NCBI GenBank assembly: GCA_951406725.2
Contig: OX597820.1
Span: forward strand, 34,596,001 to 34,660,000
Direction: 5' to 3'
Source of the DNA: Octopus vulgaris
Taxonomy: Eukaryota
DNA length: 64,000 bases
Shown piece by piece: positions 1,005 through 59,394 of this stretch. A model generated the notes under the pieces. That model saw nothing but the letters and a program-made list of their open reading frames with translations. It searched no databases and was not told the DNA's origin. Made by a program: the position numbers and the translations under genes. Numbering within the stretch: the first letter of the stretch is position 1; each line of letters begins with the position of its first letter.

Positions 1005-2164
1005 CAGGGTGCGGTGAATAAACTGTCGTCTAAATTACGCAAAAATGAAAATAACACTGACATCTCATGATACACGTACCAAAATTGCATAATAATATCT
1101 TGAAATACTAAAGAATAAATTTATTCAATAAAATTGCCATTGGCTTCACTACGGCCTCCAGGCGACTTCAGAATCTCCTGCAACTCACCTGGACGGTCTC
1201 CTTGTTTAAGTTGGTGTATGCTGCCATAATCTTTGATGCTGCCATAATCCAGATACTAACGGTGATGTGGTCACAGAAATTGTCTGACAGTCATAACTGG
1301 GTTTTCCTGCTTATGTGGCATGGTGCAGAGTCCTGGTGCCAGACATAGGGTCTTCCAGCAACCACCCTCTTGACTCAGGGCAGCACTATCTCCTCCAGGC
1401 ACTTGATGTAGGCCTCCATATTGAGTTTGAGGCCGTGTGGGAAGATGAATGGAGGCATAACATCGCCATCGGTAGTGATCACTCCAAACACCACGATGTT
1501 GATTGGATGTTTGATTCTTTTCACTCTTGGTACGTGTTTTGGGGACACGGCAAGCAAACGGTTGTTCTGTGTGTTCACCATCTGATCCTGGTAGAAATTT
1601 TTCTCGTCTAAGAAAAACCAAAGCATGTTCGGTTGGAGGGGATGCTTAAGTTTGTTCAAAAGCTTCGTAACGCGGTCTTTCTTCTTGTTCTTGATGGCTT
1701 GAGATAAAAATTGGCACTTTCTCATCTTGCATGGGAAATACCGAATGTTTTCATGTACTACCTACCTAATAAGAAACTCTGACTCTCCTATGTCCCTGGA
1801 GAGACCGTTGTCAATCAAGGCCTGGATCTCACCAACAAATTCAGGAGTTCTTTTCTGATCAGAACGATCAGAATGAGTTTTCCGAGTTTTTATCATTAGA
1901 CTCATCCAACTCTTTCCGAATCCTCTGCACTGTCCTCAGCTTGACACCCAAACACTCTGAAATGTTCGTATTGGGGCTTCTGGCGCGAGTGCCAAGCAGT
2001 ACAGCATGTCGTTTCCAAATTTCAGGCAGAGTAATTTGCATCATGATGTTGTTTTTCTCACTCTACGACCCTACGATACTGTGTAGTCGACAAAAATCAA
2101 AAACAAACAATGCGCATGCACGAAATTAAAAATATAAAATGGAAACAATTTAACCATCGCACCT

Positions 2165-18816: not shown

Positions 18817-19367
18817 TAGGTTGTCCGGAAAGTTCTGAGCGTTTTTAAGCCAAATCTTTTAACGCTGAAATGTAACGCAGTTAAAAATTTGGCGTTGCTT
18901 GAAGTGGTAGTGCGTCTCTTGTTTGTTCCTGACTAAGAATAGATTTATCTTTCATTTCGGTTACCCGTTATTGGCATTTGAAATAAATAACCAAAAATTT
19001 CATATTCGTGTTGTAAGACTTTTCTATTTAAAACAAGACGAGAAAATGCTGCAAGGACTTACAAAAACATTTGTGAAGTTTATGGTCATGGTAGACATCC
19101 GACTATCATGTTTTTGTCTCTACAGGATTCATTGCTAGGACAAATATTTAACGGTTTAGATGGAGTCAAAATGCATCTAGATACATTTTTTTTTCTTCAA
19201 AACCAGACAAATTTTATGCTGATAAAATATTTAAATTGCCTGATAGATGGGCAAAGGTCATTAATAATAATGGAAATTATTTCATTGAACAAAATTTATT
19301 GAAAGACCAATCAGTTATATCCCGTTTTGCATATTAAAAAACGCCCAGAACTTTCCGGACAACCTAA
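18817..19367 (+). mobile_element. Internally deleted mariner element
   Basis: TIRs taggttgtccggaaagttctgagcgttttt / aaaaaacgcccagaactttccggacaaccta; remnants of mariner C-terminus (SDYHVF.SLQDSL, LPDRWAKVINNNGNYF). Confidence 0.88.
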
Positions 19368-21646: not shown

Positions 21647-22169
21647 TAATCACCGTATTTTTAAGGCTCAAGTCTCTTTGATAAATTTTCGCTGTGACAA
21701 AATATTACAATTAGTGCTGTTTCGTATTTATATACAAATTATAGAAGTGTATAAACACAGGTATTTCACTCTTATGATATTTCAGCTGTGTATATTAAAC
21801 TTTCGCACAAATCAGTAAATGTTTCACATCATTTTTTTTCCTACTTGCTTCAGTCATTTGACTGCAGCCAAGCTCAGGTACCGCCTTGAAGGGTTCTTAG
21901 TTGAACAAATCGACCTCAACTGATTTCTATATCGAAACAAGCAAGCATTTTCTGCTAGGCTCAGAACGTTCGAGGGATTCGTCACTGAAGTTGAAACATC
22001 ATCTCTGGTGAACCACAGGAGTTTTGATCAAAGTCCTGGGTTTTTAACTTACAAGTCTCGTTGAGAAATTTTCTCTCAGAGAAAACATTACATTATAATT
22101 GTTATACAGACCGATATTTTAATATGAGGCTGTTTTAAGTGTGTATATTAATATCGTTTTTTGTTTTTG

Positions 22170-22570
22170 TTTGTTTTCGGACATTAACAGCAGAACTGGA
22201 AAAAAGGTAAGAGCAATAGAGTTGAGATACTACAGACGGCTCCTAAGTATCTCGTATAAAGAACACGTAACGAATAACGAAGTGATAATGAGGAAAACCC
22301 AGGCTATTAGATCACATAAGGATCTGGTGACAATTCTAAAGACATGGAAACTGAAATGGTATGGCCATGTCGCAAGAAGCTCTAGCGAATGGAAGGTAGA
22401 CGAAAGCAATGCAGGACAAAGAAAAGATGGAATTGTAACATCAAAGAGTGGACAGGCTCAATTTCACCGACCCACAAAGGACAGCAGAAGATCAAGGGAA
22501 GTGGGGAAATCTGGTGTGACGTCATCAACAAATGCCTCAACGACCACGCGGTCAAGGAATACGGTAGGAT
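22170..22570 (+). mobile_element. RTE-clade LINE 3' fragment
   Basis: KVRAIELRYYRRLLSISYKEHVTNNEV...KLKWYGHVARS...EGRRK...KKRW..NIKEWTG is the characteristic RTE ORF C-terminus. Confidence 0.88.
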
Positions 22571-23201
22571 AGGATAGTCTGTTTTTAGCACAAAGACTTC
22601 ACTGGATTCCTTCGTGTCACATTCATGGGAGCAATAATATTCGTAAACGCTCGACCCGACAAAACACAAAACATTTCAAAATTATTCCTTATTAGTTTAA
22701 CTATTAGTCTCAATTCATTAGGTAAAGCCTGGTTTTATCTTATATTTTTATGAGAGCTTTGCAATAAGAAAACCATTAAAGATGAAGACAAGAAGAGGGA
22801 CGACGACGACGACGACAACAACAACAACAATAACAACAACAACAGTAACAAAAAAAGACGAAACAACGAAGCAGCAAACCTCTGGATGATACTCCTGTCT
22901 GTTAGAAGCGGCAGATAAATCCCTCTCATGTTTCACACAACCGTCTTAAATAAGGAGAGGTTACAGTATAACGTTGCCCTTCGGTTATTCAGAAATCCCT
23001 TTAGGATTTCAATAACATACCAAATAAAATGCTAAAGGGAATTTTGAATCGCTCTGAATACTTATTACAAAAAATAGATGCGGCAAAACCCCCGCTCAGA
23101 TTCACCATATATGATAAACGCGTCTACAGTAAGTGCACGATATCCATCAGCTCAGGCCCTAATATCATAGTAATATGATATTCACTACGTTATATGCCCA
23201 C

Positions 23202-23497
23202 GGGCATATGGCGTAGTGGTTAAGAGCGCGGGCTACTAGCCCCAAGATTCCGAGTTCGATTCCAAGCAGTGACTTGAACAATAACAATAATAATAATAAT
23301 AAGAACATCGAAAAATACCTTAGGAATGAGAACCCAGGTTCGAAATTTCCCCAAGACACCTGAAGAAGGCTGGAGGGTATATCAGCCGAAACGTTGTGTT
23401 AACAATAAACAAGATGAGGACAAATATCTGTCGAATGTAAATAATGTAAATAATGTAAATAAGGTACATAATTCTTCATCTCTTAAATATAGAACTG
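23202..23497 (+). mobile_element. tRNA-headed SINE carrying a minimal hammerhead ribozyme
   Basis: A box TGGCGTAGTGG (23209-19), B box GAGTTCGATTCC (23252-63), short (AAT)n linker, hammerhead at 23356-23399; possible TSD tatgatatt(c/t)act; 17-nt 5' inverted duplication. Confidence 0.75.
23356..23399 (+). ncRNA. Minimal type I hammerhead ribozyme (intact core)
   Basis: stem I acac/gtgt; CTGAAGA; extra A; stem II ggctg/cagcc with 10-nt loop; GAAA; palindromic stem III ACGT; GUU cleavage triplet ending at 23395. Confidence 0.75.
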
Positions 23498-32286: not shown

Positions 32287-32336
<50 letters not shown>

Positions 32337-32430
32337 ATCCAAACATGAAAACACAAAGAGAAAACACAACGCGAGGACGTGGAACAAGTATAGTATTATT
32401 GGACGCTCAGGAAAGAAGGAAGGAAGGAGG

Positions 32431-32465
32431 GTTTAAAGTTTCGAGCAGAGCTGTTCGTCAGAAAC
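32431..32465 (-). ncRNA. Degenerate minimal type I hammerhead (repeat 32333-32492)
   Basis: gttt CTGACGA a cagc-tct-gctc GAAA CTTT aaac; paralog of 46800-46834. Confidence 0.55.
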
Positions 32466-33369
32466 ATAGGAAAAGGAAAGATCCAAAGAAGATGTGAGTG
32501 TGTGTGTGTGTGTGTATTTATCTATGTGTGTGTGTCTTTGTTTGTCACCCCATCATCGCTTGACAACCAATAGTGGTGTGTTTATGTCCCCGTAACCTAG
32601 TGGTTCGGCAAAAGAGACCGAAAGAATAAGTACTATGCTTACAAAGAATAAGTGCTGGCGACGATTTCTTCGACTAAAAACCTTTAAGGCGGTGCTCCAG
32701 CATTGCTGCAATCAAGTGATTGAAACAAGTAAAAGAATAAAAGAATATATGTATGCATGTGTGTTTGTATGTTTGTGTGTGTGAGTGTGTGTGTGTGTGT
32801 GCACATATATGTATCTATATATACATGATGTACTCAGTACATGATATTCGAACTCTTTTATAGTTCTTATGTTCTCTTGATGTTTTCCCAACAAGCCAGC
32901 CAGCCAGCCAGCCAACCAGCCAACAAGCCCACTCCCCACTTCTCTGTCAGTCTGTCACCCACCGACCCTATTTACTAATTCTACAGCAAACATTACATGT
33001 ATTAACAGTCATTAGCGTCATACAACCACCGCCGCCAACACCGTCACAACCACAACCGCCGCCACCACACCTGCCAGCATAACCCCTTCTGCCAAAACCA
33101 CCGAAATAGCTAAAATATTATGGAAACTAACGAGAGCACCACCACCACCACCACCACCACAATTGTCATCGTCGTCATCATCATCATTAACATCATTTTC
33201 ACCGTCAGTGCAACCTCCAGTACCTTTTCCCCCCCAAACTACCAGGAGTGGCGGATGGGGGCTTAGTGGAAAAGGAGGTCATTGAGATGTGACATGAGTA
33301 GATTAGTGGTAGGTTTGAGGTGAGCTGAGCGGAGGCAATTGAATAGTAATTATTGCAAGTAATTCAAAC

Positions 33370-45438: not shown

Positions 45439-46799
45439 ATTAAAAATAAATGTCCAACTGTACTCCTAGTTGACTCCAAATTTTTTCCAATTATCTATTC
45501 GGACACGACAGATGCCCAAACGCAAACCTGGAAGTACGCATAATACTACTACTGAGTAGCACAAGGTGAAATCTGAAGGTGGACAAGCTTTATACTTTAC
45601 CCTACTATGTTCTTAACAGAATATACCGTAATGTGTGTGTATGTTTGCGTTTATATATTAGTGTAGCTTCGTCCGGAGAAGAATAGCAACGTTTCTGGCC
45701 GGTTTCACAGATGTCTCCGAGAGTTGTGGTTCTGGAGATGTTAGAAAGAAGGAAGGAGCCACTGCAAATCGGTTATCTTCAGATTAAAAATGTGGTCCAA
45801 AGAAATGCACTCACATTGTGAACTCGGTTAAAAGCATCTGAGGGTAATCTAATGTTGTCTTTAAAATAAGTTAACGGATTATGCCTACCACCTAAAACAA
45901 GGATTTTCCACAAAATTTCTATCAGCCAAATTTCCCTGACAATGCTTTGTTATACCCGAGGCACTTCTTGAATACTTTTGTCCAAGATTAATATACAGCC
46001 ATATCGAAACCGAAACCACGCGTCTGCAAAACCAACCAGCTAACCGCATGACCATGACCACGACATAAAAAATAAGTTTACCACCCAAATATACCACCCA
46101 AAATCTGCAAGAGCTGAAGCAAACATTGGCCAATATCCTACAGAAACCAGATTGTAAAGATATGAAAGAAAATAAGAGCATCTGTTTAATATCTTTGCCG
46201 TTATCAACTTTGTATAGAGCGAGGTAGTTTGAATTTCGGGCAAGGTTTTGCAACATTATGTAACATAATAAGAATTGTTGGTGTTGTTTTTGTTTCTTTA
46301 CTGGTGTATACTTAATTTTCATTCATTTTGTTAACCCTTATTTTCAGAAATTGCTGATTGAAAAAAGAAAAGGAAATCCACAAGAACTAGAAAAGAAACC
46401 GTTTGATTCAACGAGGGAGCCACTTGGCAATAACAGCCAAATCTCCCTCAAATAAAAAGAACGAAAAATCCAGCGCCCGTTCGTGAATATTATGCATAGG
46501 CGTATAGAATATATGATGTGCCCGCACACGCGCGCGCGCATACACTCTCACACACGCACACATCAAAAACAGGATTAAATGTTCTTCCCAGGCAGTAGGC
46601 TCGTGTAGTCAGTCCACGAGTTCAGTGGCGTATATACTACCTTCCAGAACGGGATGCCGGATCGTCGTAAGAATATACCTACATATACACATATGTATAT
46701 ATGGTTAATCCAAACAAGAAAACACAAAAAAACAACAACGCGAGGACGTGGAACAAATATAGTATTATTGGATGCTCAGGAAAGAAGGGAAGAAGGAGG

Positions 46800-46834
46800 G
46801 TTTAACGTTTCGAGCGGAGCTCTTCGTCGGAAAC
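46800..46834 (-). ncRNA. Minimal type I hammerhead-like motif (repeat 46702-46887)
   Basis: gttt CCGACGA a gagc-tcc-gctc GAAA CG TT aaac; stems intact, core U4C; the two-copy consensus restores CTGACGA. Confidence 0.65.
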
Positions 46835-46897
46835 ATAGAAGGAAAGATCCCGAGAAGGGAAGAGAGAGGAAAAAAAATCGCCAACGGTATATATATG

Positions 46898-48210: not shown

Positions 48211-49330
48211 TCAGGCTGAGTAAAAGTAATGTTTAGAAACATGAAATTCTTCACAATATATTTCAACAATACAGAAATTTTATTCATCAAAGTAAGCTCC
48301 ATTACAATGAACATTTTTGCCAACGAGTTGCAAGTGTGTTTATTCTGTTAACATAAAAATCTAGAGTTCTTGAGCTGATGAACTCTTTGATCCTCCTCTC
48401 TCAGGATACCATCAAGGTACTTGAAAGAGTGGTAGTCGGTAGGAGAAAGGTCTGGGGAATAAGCTGGGTGGGGAACAACTTCATAGCCAAATTCCCTCAA
48501 CTTCTGGAGCGTCATTAGTGAAACGTGTGGTCGAGCATAGTCATGAAGAATGATTGACCCTCTTCTGTTGACCAATCTGGGATAGAGGAGTAGCAGTTTT
48601 ACGTTCATTTTGGCAATTTCATGGCAATATGTTTCTGCAGTAATGGTTTTTCTGAGATTTAAGAAGTTATAGTGGATGAGTCCAGCAGTACACCACTAAA
48701 CAGTCACCATAACCCGCTTTTTGAAGAGCTCGGGTTTAGGGAGTTTCCGATGCTTCATTTTGGTCCAACCACTGCGGAGAACGTTTTTTATTACTGTACA
48801 GAATCCACTTTTCATCGCAAGATATAATAGGGTCGAGAAATGGATCAGTTTGGTTACGGAGAAGCTACGAGCAAATTTCATATCTGCGCATTTTCTGGTT
48901 TTCATTCAAATCGTGTGTTATCCATTTGTTGAGGTTTTTGATATTTTGATCGCATGCAAATGGTTGCAGGTAGTTTTCTGGCTAACCTGAAGTTCTTTTG
49001 CAAGTTCTCAAGTGGTTTTACGTGGATCTTTCTCAATAACGGTCTTTAATTGACCGTCATCGATGATAGATGGGCGTCCACTACGTTCACAATCTTCAAG
49101 GCTCAGGTCTCCACTGTGAAATCGTTTAAACTATTTTCGAGCTGACCACTCACTGGCCATTTCCTTATCAAACGTTGCGTTGATATCGTGAGCAGTTTCA
49201 GCTACTTTATTTACTTTTTTGAAGTTGAATAGCAAAATTGCTCGAATATTGTGCTTTGGCAGTAAATAAATAAAAAAATTTACGGAAATTAACGAACTCC
49301 GGATGATGAAATCACATTCAGTTAAAAATA
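48211..49330 (-). mobile_element. Mariner (DD34D-type) transposon, decayed
   Basis: Transposase motifs HDYARPH, HPAYSPDLSPTDYH and N-terminal HTH remnants (SGRPSI); TA|tcaggctgagtaaaagtaa end at 48211. Confidence 0.9.
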
Positions 49331-49696
49331 TTTCTAAACGATTAAAATATTGTGTACGTCAAAAGTTTACGTTCTTCTTTCTTAGAAAGCTTGAAACTAT
49401 GTGTGTGTATATGTCACATATAGTGGACCTGTGTCTGTGTTGATTGACAAGCCATGACATTCATTATATGTGTGTGTATTCTGTATGTCTGTTGACGTCA
49501 CGGAAGCCATGTTTATTTTCGTCAAGAAATAGCAAACAAAAATTGTTTTTAATCTTCAAAATAGAGGTCAAAATATCACAAAAATTTGTACTGCCAAAGG
49601 TAGGTATGGAAATAAATATGTAAAAAATATATAAAGAAAAATATACTATTTCTGAGATATTTCAGGTACACACAAACATCTCTAGAGCTTTAGTAT

Positions 49697-50354: not shown

Positions 50355-50803
50355 TAAAAATATTTATAATAATAATAATAATGATGATGATAATAATAAT
50401 AATAACGAGACGATGTTGACGATGATGATGATGATGACAACGACAACGACGACGAAGATTTCTTATTAACAGCTATAATTATAACGGCAGAAACAGTGAT
50501 AATAGGAAAGACGGTGGAAAAATGATTACTTCTGATGCATATCAACAGCGAGAATAAGAGCAACAACAACAACAACAACAGTAACAATAAAAATAACAAT
50601 GGCGACGGTGATGGCGTGCGTTCATGATGTTGATAATGATAACGGCGACGACGTACATACACACACAGACACACGCACATATATACATATACGTATGTGT
50701 ATATGTATGTATATACATAACAATATAACCACTTATTCTGTTTCTTTATCTCCAACGAGATTTATCCCTGCCATACACATTAGTGGTAAGTAATATATAG
50801 CTT

Positions 50804-54489: not shown

Positions 54490-54741
54490 GTATACATTCA
54501 CCTACACACACATACACATACACATTCTTTTCTTTTACTTGTTACATTTCTTTGACTGATGGAGTACCGCTTTAAAGGGTTTTTAGTCGAAGAAATCGAC
54601 CCCAGGACTTATTCTTTCTAAGCCTAGCACTTATTCTATCGGACTCTTTTCCCGAATCGCTATGTTACGGAGACGTAAACTCATCAACATCGGTTGTCAA
54701 GCGATGGTTGGGGAAGAGAAAACGTAGACTAAAAAACACAC

Positions 54742-55519: not shown

Positions 55520-55757
55520 AGTGTGCATGTGTGTGTGTTTATGTGTATATATACACACACATGCACAAACACATATGGAGCACATATATATAGTAAACTT
55601 TATATGCCAACAGAATGTGACGCTCCTATAAAGGACGATGTTACTGCTGTTTTAGCCCCAGGTAAACATCTTTTCCAGCTGGCTATTGACACACAGTCTG
55701 TGTCTGTATACCATTTGCAAAGAAGGTCATCGCTCCCATCTCTAGCCTTACGTGATA

Positions 55758-55802
55758 CTCACAGACCTAGGTTCCTGGGTGGTTACCCATCCTCAGTGTG
55801 AG
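55758..55802 (-). ncRNA. Type I hammerhead ribozyme motif (one core change)
   Basis: ctcaca CTGAGGA tgggt-aacc-accca GGAA CCTAGG TC tgtgag: 6-bp stem I, 5-bp stem II, palindromic stem III ACCTAGGT, GUC site; A13G. Confidence 0.75.
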
Positions 55803-56158
55803 ACAACCACAGGTTAATGACGTAAGCTCTTTCCACTCACAAGTACATTATATTCTGTAAGCGACACACAGTCACTGATCTCGTATAGAGATAAACAACT
55901 TGTTTTAAATCTCAGAGCGAGAGATATACAGTAACACGACCGAAAGTAAAGATTATATGCCAACAGAATGTGACAGTTTTATAAAGGACGACACCCTTGC
56001 GAATGCTATAGGACTGCCACATTCTTTTGGCAAATAAACTTTACTATTCGTTACTGTATAAGTTGCTTTTCTCCATACGAGATCAGCGATTGTGTGTCGC
56101 TTAAAGAATATATAGTATTTGCGAGTGGAGAGAGATTTCATCATTAGCCTGTGGTTAT

Positions 56159-56203
56159 CTCACATTGAGGACGAGTAACCACCCACAAACCTAGGTCTGT
56201 GAG
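56159..56203 (+). ncRNA. Degenerate copy of the same type I hammerhead
   Basis: ctcaca TTGAGGA cgagt-aacc-accca CAAA CCTAGG TC tgtgag. Confidence 0.65.
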
Positions 56204-56431
56204 TATCACGTAAGGCTAGCGATGGGAGCGATGACCTCTCTTGCAAAAGCTATTGGACACAAACTGTGTGTCGATAGCCAACTGGAAAATATGTTTTCCT
56301 GGGGCTAAAACAACAGTCACATCGTCCCTTATAGGACCGCCACATTCTATTGGCATACAAAAATTACTATCCGGTACTGTTACTGTATATCTCTCGTTCA
56401 GAGATTTAAAACAAGCTGTTTCTCTCTCACT

Positions 56432-59091: not shown

Positions 59092-59347
59092 TGTATGTAT
59101 ATACATATATGTATGTATATACATATATATATATATGTATATATATATATGTATATATATATTTATGTATATATATATGTATATACATATATAAATATAT
59201 ATATGTATATACATATATGTATGTATATACATATATATACATATATATATATGTATATATATATATGTATATATATATATGTATATATATATATGTATAT
59301 ATATATATATGTATATATATAAGTATATATATACATATGTATATATG

Positions 59348-59394
<47 letters not shown>

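Follow-up and report, generated by a model that had tools for sequence, protein, structure and literature searches.

What kind of element has left two inverted, hammerhead-bearing copies of one short repeat side by side in the genome of Octopus vulgaris, and how were they written there? The pair lies near the end of the 64,000-nucleotide stretch of contig OX597820.1 that we analysed (hereafter the window, whose coordinates are used throughout). We read it as a decayed head-to-head pair of non-LTR retrozyme-type 353-bp elements, likely written into a microsatellite tract in a single event in which a Penelope-like element (PLE) supplied the reverse transcriptase/endonuclease, a reading to which we assign a probability of roughly 0.78. 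Taking the analysis as a whole, the locus is likely a dead insertion of a non-autonomous PLE mini-element.

The repeat unit was defined by the recurrence of 55592-55638 at 55945-55991 with 87% identity and a spacing of 353, in agreement with the initial annotation, which had placed a restart of a 353-bp unit at 55945. For reference, the monomer is numbered in the hammerhead sense with position 1 at window position 55944. The complete monomer (55592..55944, - strand, 353 bp, GC 0.43) contains no ATG-initiated ORF of 30 aa or more on the hammerhead strand, and its non-coding character, its length inside the 150-450 bp range, its GC content below 50% and its apparent lack of LTR structure are all retrozyme-type features. 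The whole head-to-head inverted structure covers 838 bp and consists of a left arm at 55590-55991 (-) and a right arm at 56007-56427 (+). The left arm, 402 nt long, comprises monomer positions 307-353, 1-353 and two further nucleotides, equal to 1.14 units (about 1.1 monomers had been estimated), and its 3′ end runs into an (AT)n tract; its terminal redundancy (55945..55991, - strand, 47 nt) shows 6 differences from 55592-55638. The right arm, 421 nt spread over 450 monomer positions, is composed of positions 315-353, 1-353 with deletions of 6 and 24 nt, and 1-58, equal to 1.27 units against a first estimate of about 1.3, and its 3′ end runs into a (TC)n/(TA)n tract. Both arms are therefore longer than one monomer. 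Their 5′ ends face each other over a 15-nt filler (55992..56006), and their 3′ ends point outward into the microsatellites. The arms are about 86% identical, with 43 differences over 311 aligned positions and 8 over 59, and the redundant segments within them show 6 differences over 47 and 6 over 39 positions; the divergence within arms thus matches that between arms, as expected of one event followed by decay. No further copy of the 353-bp unit was found elsewhere in the 64-kb window.

Each arm contains one type I hammerhead, and all three core lesions proposed on first reading were located. The left motif (55758..55802, - strand) has a stem I of 6 bp, a stem II of 5 bp and a stem III of 2 bp closed by the palindromic loop CTAG; it carries the core lesion A13G at 55774, and cleavage is predicted between 55764 and 55763. 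The right motif (56159..56203, + strand) carries C3U (56165) and G12C (56186) together with a weakened stem II, and cleavage is predicted after 56197. A structured hammerhead descriptor allowing one core mismatch picked up the left motif, and none of 10 shuffled windows gave a match as strong or with stems as long. A search of both hammerheads against Rfam returned nothing at the gathering score, and at E values up to 10 it returned only hairpin-shaped miRNA models far below their thresholds. The architecture is that of the canonical metazoan type I hammerhead, with a helix I of 6 bp, a helix II of about 4 bp, a helix III of 1-2 bp and a palindromic loop (PMC4209133), and not the minimal form of autonomous PLEs, which typically carry minimal hammerhead variants (PMC4209133). 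As the two motifs lie on opposite strands, no transcript of the locus contains two hammerheads, and with a single hammerhead per strand and core lesions in both, the locus cannot itself release a monomer; both local ribozymes are predicted to be damaged.

Hammerhead pattern scans gave no match in viral contigs (two scans) and none in prokaryote genomes. Twenty-two pattern matches in metagenomes were rejected as chance matches, as none was similar to the element by blastn and none possessed both stem I and stem II. One metagenome match, L002:163-198 (-), has a 6-bp stem II without stem I and is possibly an unrelated type III hammerhead.

The initial annotation had described a rod-like monomer in which the flanks extend stem I into a long bulged hairpin. 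The hairpin was borne out by folding. It extends stem I by about 55 nt on each side, in a decayed form in the left arm (55703..55856, - strand; duplex -32.9 kcal/mol, z -2.5, equalled by 9 of 500 shuffles) and in a better preserved form in the right arm (56105..56257, + strand; duplex -45.3 kcal/mol, z -5.0, 0 of 500 shuffles). The rod was not, since it fits less than half of the unit: single copies of the monomer fold into 5-9 hairpins (z -1.4 to -1.6 for the left copy, -2.6 to -3.6 for the right), and the circular two-copy consensus, whose fold had been suggested as a check, forms 9 hairpins, a number about equal to that of shuffled sequences. The monomer is instead predicted to combine one long hairpin with a branched half. 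The linear consensus fold of the two sequences missed the hammerhead fold, and 1 of its 77 pairs was compensatory, two decayed copies being too few for this approach.

To see the locus against its relatives, we turned to sequencing runs, 20 of 24 listed (from 11 studies, under five organism labels) containing part of the stretch and none being recorded as RNA. Contigs of four runs were aligned to 55565-56045 at 80% likeness. The three DNA-type runs (X1, X2 and X11) gave 1,812, 2,518 and 2,538 aligned contigs, most of them 80-95% alike, although their depth is not a copy number, and the repeat belongs to a dispersed family of many copies and many variants. At 55774, a letter other than that of the left arm, which restores GAAA, accounts for 11007 of 11222 depth in X1, 20471 of 21197 in X2 and 20044 of 20710 in X11 (97-98%), and the family hammerhead core is intact at the GAAA position. 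At the first position of stem II, the T of the left copy is replaced by C at 49%, 63% and 71% of the depth in the three runs. The canonical consensus drawn up from the two arms thus stands in its architecture and its GAAA and falls at this first T of stem II, where the C of the family opposite A may weaken cleavage. At no fewer than 24 sites (among 40 of 128 rows listed), the letter of the left arm is not the majority letter of any of the three DNA-type runs; of those 24 listed sites, 19 show the majority letter in the right arm, 4 show the minority letter of the left arm there as well, and 1 is a gap. This distribution makes the arms look like members of one subfamily that have each decayed by about 7%.

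In sister variants of the repeat, loop III reads either TCGA (24 and 28 contigs) or CCGG (13 contigs at an agreement of 0.55), each of them a palindrome. Preservation of the palindrome through CTAG, TCGA and CCGG would fit selection for dimeric cleavage. Head-to-tail closure was also seen outside the locus: in all three DNA-type runs, contigs pass unbroken across 55604-55934 and others join 55936 back to 55590-55638 or to the right-arm copy (15 joints listed of 198), and the unit closes head-to-tail into a loop of about 350 nt at the level of the family. The proposal of a retrozyme-type family is upheld by this closure in other copies and by the GAAA core. Two complete hammerhead units in tandem were absent from the 32 pieces listed of 7,483 contig pieces, the contigs being short. 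Depth at 55650-55700 and 55735-55768 lies far above that of the hammerhead core (up to 266,000 versus about 20,000 in X2), which suggests commoner sister families sharing only those two segments. Low depth at 55803-55857 was considered as a 5′ truncation or family-wide end and rejected, as alignments are clipped there by 11 listed differences of the left arm within about 50 nt, and contigs cannot show ends. Run X8, for which RNA is only a guess, gave 164 contigs with a profile broadly like that of the DNA-type runs, including one 162-nt piece identical to the locus.

The head-to-head junction is real and single-copy. One X1 contig bridges it over 55862-56045 with 0 differences at a depth of 45.9 (X1 may be the source of the window itself), and in X2 the junction has a depth of about 50 with the letters of the window, while the arms reach thousands. 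On the monomer, the 5′ starts of the arms fall at positions 307 (left) and 315 (right), only 8 nt apart at one short hairpin or near-palindrome, which occupies monomer positions ~309-322 and is seen in the duplicated copy at 55623..55636 (- strand). The near-palindrome (positions 310-321) is kept with different letters in sister variants. The 3′ ends differ, at monomer positions 2 (left) and 58 (right), by a 56-nt extension present in the right arm only (56372..56427, + strand), which resembles a PLE ‘tail’. Free circular permutation of the copies, as originally proposed, is not supported by this pattern, in which the 5′ starts cluster at a conserved hairpin and only the 3′ ends vary.

A second locus repeats the arrangement: an arm truncated at 55820 is joined to an inverted arm starting at 55985, i.e. 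position 313 (one contig each in X1 and X2). In one X2 contig the joint is more complex: an arm starts at position 318, and the sequence jumps between ~228 and ~321. This jump echoes a weak match of the filler to monomer positions ~224-237 (p 0.027, best of 8 tests); a template jump is a possible lead to the origin of the filler. Both outer ends adjoin microsatellites, (AT)n on one side and (TC)n/(TA)n on the other, a weak mark in a microsatellite-rich window, and no target site duplication (TSD) flanks the insertion beyond a 9-nt (AT)n match in simple repeats. Three other candidate joints were discarded: the apparent inversion joints 55682-56007 (X11) and 55761-56010 (X2) were set aside as internal hairpins of the monomer can mimic them, and 55631-56007 was rejected as an inversion, being ordinary continuity mapped over two copies.

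By its sequence-level features the octopus element would work like a metazoan non-LTR retrozyme (PMC7229834). The closest of these are the ~350-390-bp repeats of Mytilus galloprovincialis with a GC content below 50%, to which the octopus unit is likened by description and not by sequence. The shared features are a non-coding unit, here of 353 bp and 43% GC, which contains a single canonical type I hammerhead and continues head-to-tail, a large number of divergent copies, a mollusc host, and an active hammerhead fold lying, in the octopus unit, only 5-7 kcal/mol above the free-energy minimum. Unlike the mussel retrozymes, however, the octopus arms span only 1.1-1.3 units and the pair is inverted; inverted copies are not mentioned in the main text of PMC7229834. 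In the retrozyme model, a ligated circular RNA serves as the template (PMC7229834; PMC7761336), and animal retrozymes have been argued to be non-autonomous PLE derivatives (Li, Clavereau, Pollet, bioRxiv 10.64898/2026.07.22.740005). The octopus element is similar to the vertebrate non-LTR retrozymes of the latter study, whose hammerhead unit is proposed to descend from a PLE pseudo-LTR and to be moved in trans, with dispersed monomers as inactive offspring. The sections of that preprint dealing with these elements include no mollusc and do not discuss inverted arms, tails or palindromes, and they define ‘active’ by two consecutive complete units, a composition that the octopus locus lacks (10.64898/2026.07.22.740005).

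The insertion marks, in turn, are those of PLEs. Where an endonuclease-bearing PLE has inserted, two arms lie head-to-head, a palindrome marks their inverted junction, and one of them may carry a tail (Arkhipova et al. 2013, PMC3846280); PLEs also show inverted 5′ partners and a bias towards microsatellites (Craig et al. 2021, PMC8557442). In the anole PLE, reverse transcription begins at two internal RNA sites that define the tail, the DNA nicked is AT-rich (Frangieh et al. 2024, PMC11167929), and the dominant substrate in vitro is unprocessed RNA (PMC11167929). The octopus locus matches these insertions in its inverted arms, its junction palindrome, its one-arm tail, its microsatellite or AT-rich target and the location of the hammerhead within the repeat (PMC3846280, PMC8557442, PMC11167929). 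It differs from PLEs in that the unit has no reverse transcriptase (RT) or GIY-YIG ORF, closes at 353 bp and carries a canonical hammerhead, and in that the tail is 56 nt long versus 30-40 nt. On this pattern of arms, palindrome, tail and target, the suggestion in the initial annotation that a PLE enzyme mobilised the element is likely correct. PLEs are abundant in the host, with 190 Penelope-like families making up 6.83% of the Octopus vulgaris genome (PMC13282606 supplement); hammerheads or retrozymes are never mentioned in the text or supplement of that source as available. Listings of openly accessible literature contained no report of a retrozyme or hammerhead from octopus or other cephalopods, nor of head-to-head retrozymes, although the supplement of PMC7229834 could list cephalopod motifs. 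The octopus element is a further case of a known kind, and its footprint usefully connects retrozymes with PLE integration.

A mechanism can be proposed on this basis. Active family members elsewhere would be transcribed through more than one unit, and pairs of hammerheads would be able to cleave as dimers through their palindromic loop III, releasing monomers of about 350 nt, which may be circularised by a host ligase. A PLE protein would bind the retrozyme RNA in trans and nick AT-rich DNA; cDNA synthesis would start at internal sites ~175 or ~230 nt downstream of the cleavage site, giving the two 3′ ends, and reverse transcription would pass through the cleavage site to cover 1.1-1.3 units. 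Near monomer position 310-320, copying would stop or fold back at the hairpin, and the inverted partner arm would be built. The template cannot have been a cleaved linear monomer, because both arms cross the cleavage site and are longer than one unit; either a ligated circle or an uncleaved linear multimer can serve. The clustered 5′ starts argue against free permutation, but a circle could still have been used because the enzyme could stall at the hairpin. A tentative proposal, which we consider possible rather than probable, is that the template of both arms was a covalently closed circle of 353 nt, copied from two fixed start sites across its ligated cleavage site and on for 49-97 nt past a full turn, with fold-back at the conserved hairpin. 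If true, the locus would record directly in genomic DNA that PLE enzymes mobilise circRNAs made by ribozymes, and the family, with several subfamilies that cleave as dimers, would be the first among retrozymes to be described from a cephalopod.

The main competitor is a variant of our reading that differs in the template. In it, the element is a linear mini-PLE with no circular stage, a pseudo-LTR-derived unit with its 5′ boundary at the hairpin, a terminal redundancy of ~49 nt and an optional tail; uncleaved transcripts longer than one unit would be copied, and the hammerhead would be a passenger in mobility. We rate this as a serious contender falling a little short of an even chance. The 5′ starts at 307, 315 and, at another locus, 313 speak for it, as do the two 3′ ends, which resemble the two internal start sites of the anole PLE, for which cleavage is dispensable (PMC11167929), and the lack of a two-ribozyme tandem among the 32 listed pieces. 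On the other hand, the intact family core, the loop III palindrome in three sequences and the long extension of stem I imply selection on cleavage, and all three animal retrozymes tested accumulate as circles (PMC7229834). If the arms were instead 5′-truncated stumps of an autonomous PLE (pseudo-LTR plus tail) and not a self-contained mini-element, the PLE type of every insertion mark would follow, and in Schistosoma the hammerhead-bearing ends of truncated PLEs are frequent on opposite strands (PMC4209133). However, both arms and other contigs close after 353 nt, which leaves no room for an ORF and largely refutes this origin, and the hammerhead is canonical and not of the minimal PLE type, so that we regard stumps as unlikely.

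Two further histories were also weighed. One insertion might later have been duplicated in inverse orientation by DNA repair or recombination, or two independent insertions might have landed side by side, for which one can cite the 14% distance between the arms, the single arm-specific letter shared by both redundant segments of each arm and the uncertain origin of the junction filler. Yet the 3′ ends differ, so neither arm is a simple copy of the other, the arms share 4 minority letters, and the junction lies at the same hairpin as in another locus; these observations make such a history quite improbable. A MITE or fold-back DNA transposon with terminal inverted repeats of ~400 bp would account for the pairing of the two arms into one long hairpin, and Tc1/mariner remnants are present in the window. 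It is contradicted by a junction at single-contig depth (45.9 in X1, ~50 in X2, versus thousands on the arms) and by arms that are unequal and internally redundant with no TSD found. The fixed ends with terminal inverted repeats and TSD that would mark a MITE are thus not what the locus displays, and the single-copy junction excludes such a transposon to the point that we consider it scarcely credible.

The reading of a retrozyme-type pair inserted by a PLE enzyme therefore draws on the canonical hammerhead geometry, the GAAA of the family, the palindromic loops of sister variants and head-to-tail closure on the one side, and on the full set of PLE insertion marks (head-to-head arms, junction palindrome, one-arm tail and microsatellite target) on the other, with a second locus whose inverted arm also starts at position 313. 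Several observations weigh against it: no tandem of two complete hammerheads occurs among the 32 pieces listed of 7,483, no TSD exceeds the 9-nt (AT)n match, the 56-nt extension exceeds the 30-40 nt usual for a tail, C stands opposite A at the base of stem II in 49-71% of the family depth, and no RT or GIY-YIG Pfam match, hence no PLE ORF and no partner PLE, was found among the 145 of 201 complex frames of the window that were scanned. When 9 predicted dimers from Xenopus were assayed in vitro, a single one cleaved (bioRxiv 10.64898/2026.07.22.740005), and PLEs as the enzymes that move animal retrozymes have the standing of a proposal in the literature. A self-closing unit with a canonical hammerhead and PLE insertion marks makes this link testable by mapping the ends of family copies in the octopus assembly, and it further predicts the RNA positions recognised by the PLE enzyme.

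Elsewhere the window shows microsatellites, SINE-like repeats and mariner remnants. The 353-bp unit showed no similarity to the other hammerhead repeats in the 64-kb window. One of these, a 190-bp repeat at 32302-32491 and 46673-46857 (-), is 87% identical between its copies and contains a minimal PLE-type hammerhead that is decayed in both; the two copies end at the same point into (TA)n, and their 30-nt ends are also present at 59327-59356 and 50687-50714. This repeat likely represents truncated pseudo-LTR ends of a PLE, pointing to PLE activity in the genome. Another is a SINE-like element at 23200-23480 (+), which occurs once in the window, is unrelated to the 353-bp unit and combines a tRNA-like head with A- and B-box-like motifs (by eye), an (AAT)n linker, a hammerhead and a short AT-rich repeated tail. 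Its hammerhead (23355-23401) is an intact type I motif with a 5-bp stem I, a 6-bp stem II with one unpaired 5′ base and a minimal stem III, and ARAGORN found no tRNA in the element.

Broken remnants of Tc1/mariner transposases were identified at 48351-49358 (-), 18991-19299 (+) and 1274-2062 (-) by the Pfam models Transposase_1, HTH_48 and HTH_23, and a SINE-like repeat of ~190 bp at 54524-54712 has 12 further blastn matches in the window. A 149-aa frame at 22123-22572 (+), which has no Pfam match, is one that we take to resemble the C-terminal part of a LINE reverse transcriptase, and a frame from a repeat elsewhere in the window gave one match, at 80% identity, to a predicted protein of Octopus bimaculoides.

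Folded together, the two arms of the inverted pair form one long hairpin (-499.5 kcal/mol, z -62), and any read-through transcript of 55590-56370 would form a double-stranded RNA hairpin of ~400 bp. A-to-I editing is extensive in cephalopods, and such a hairpin may be a substrate for it.
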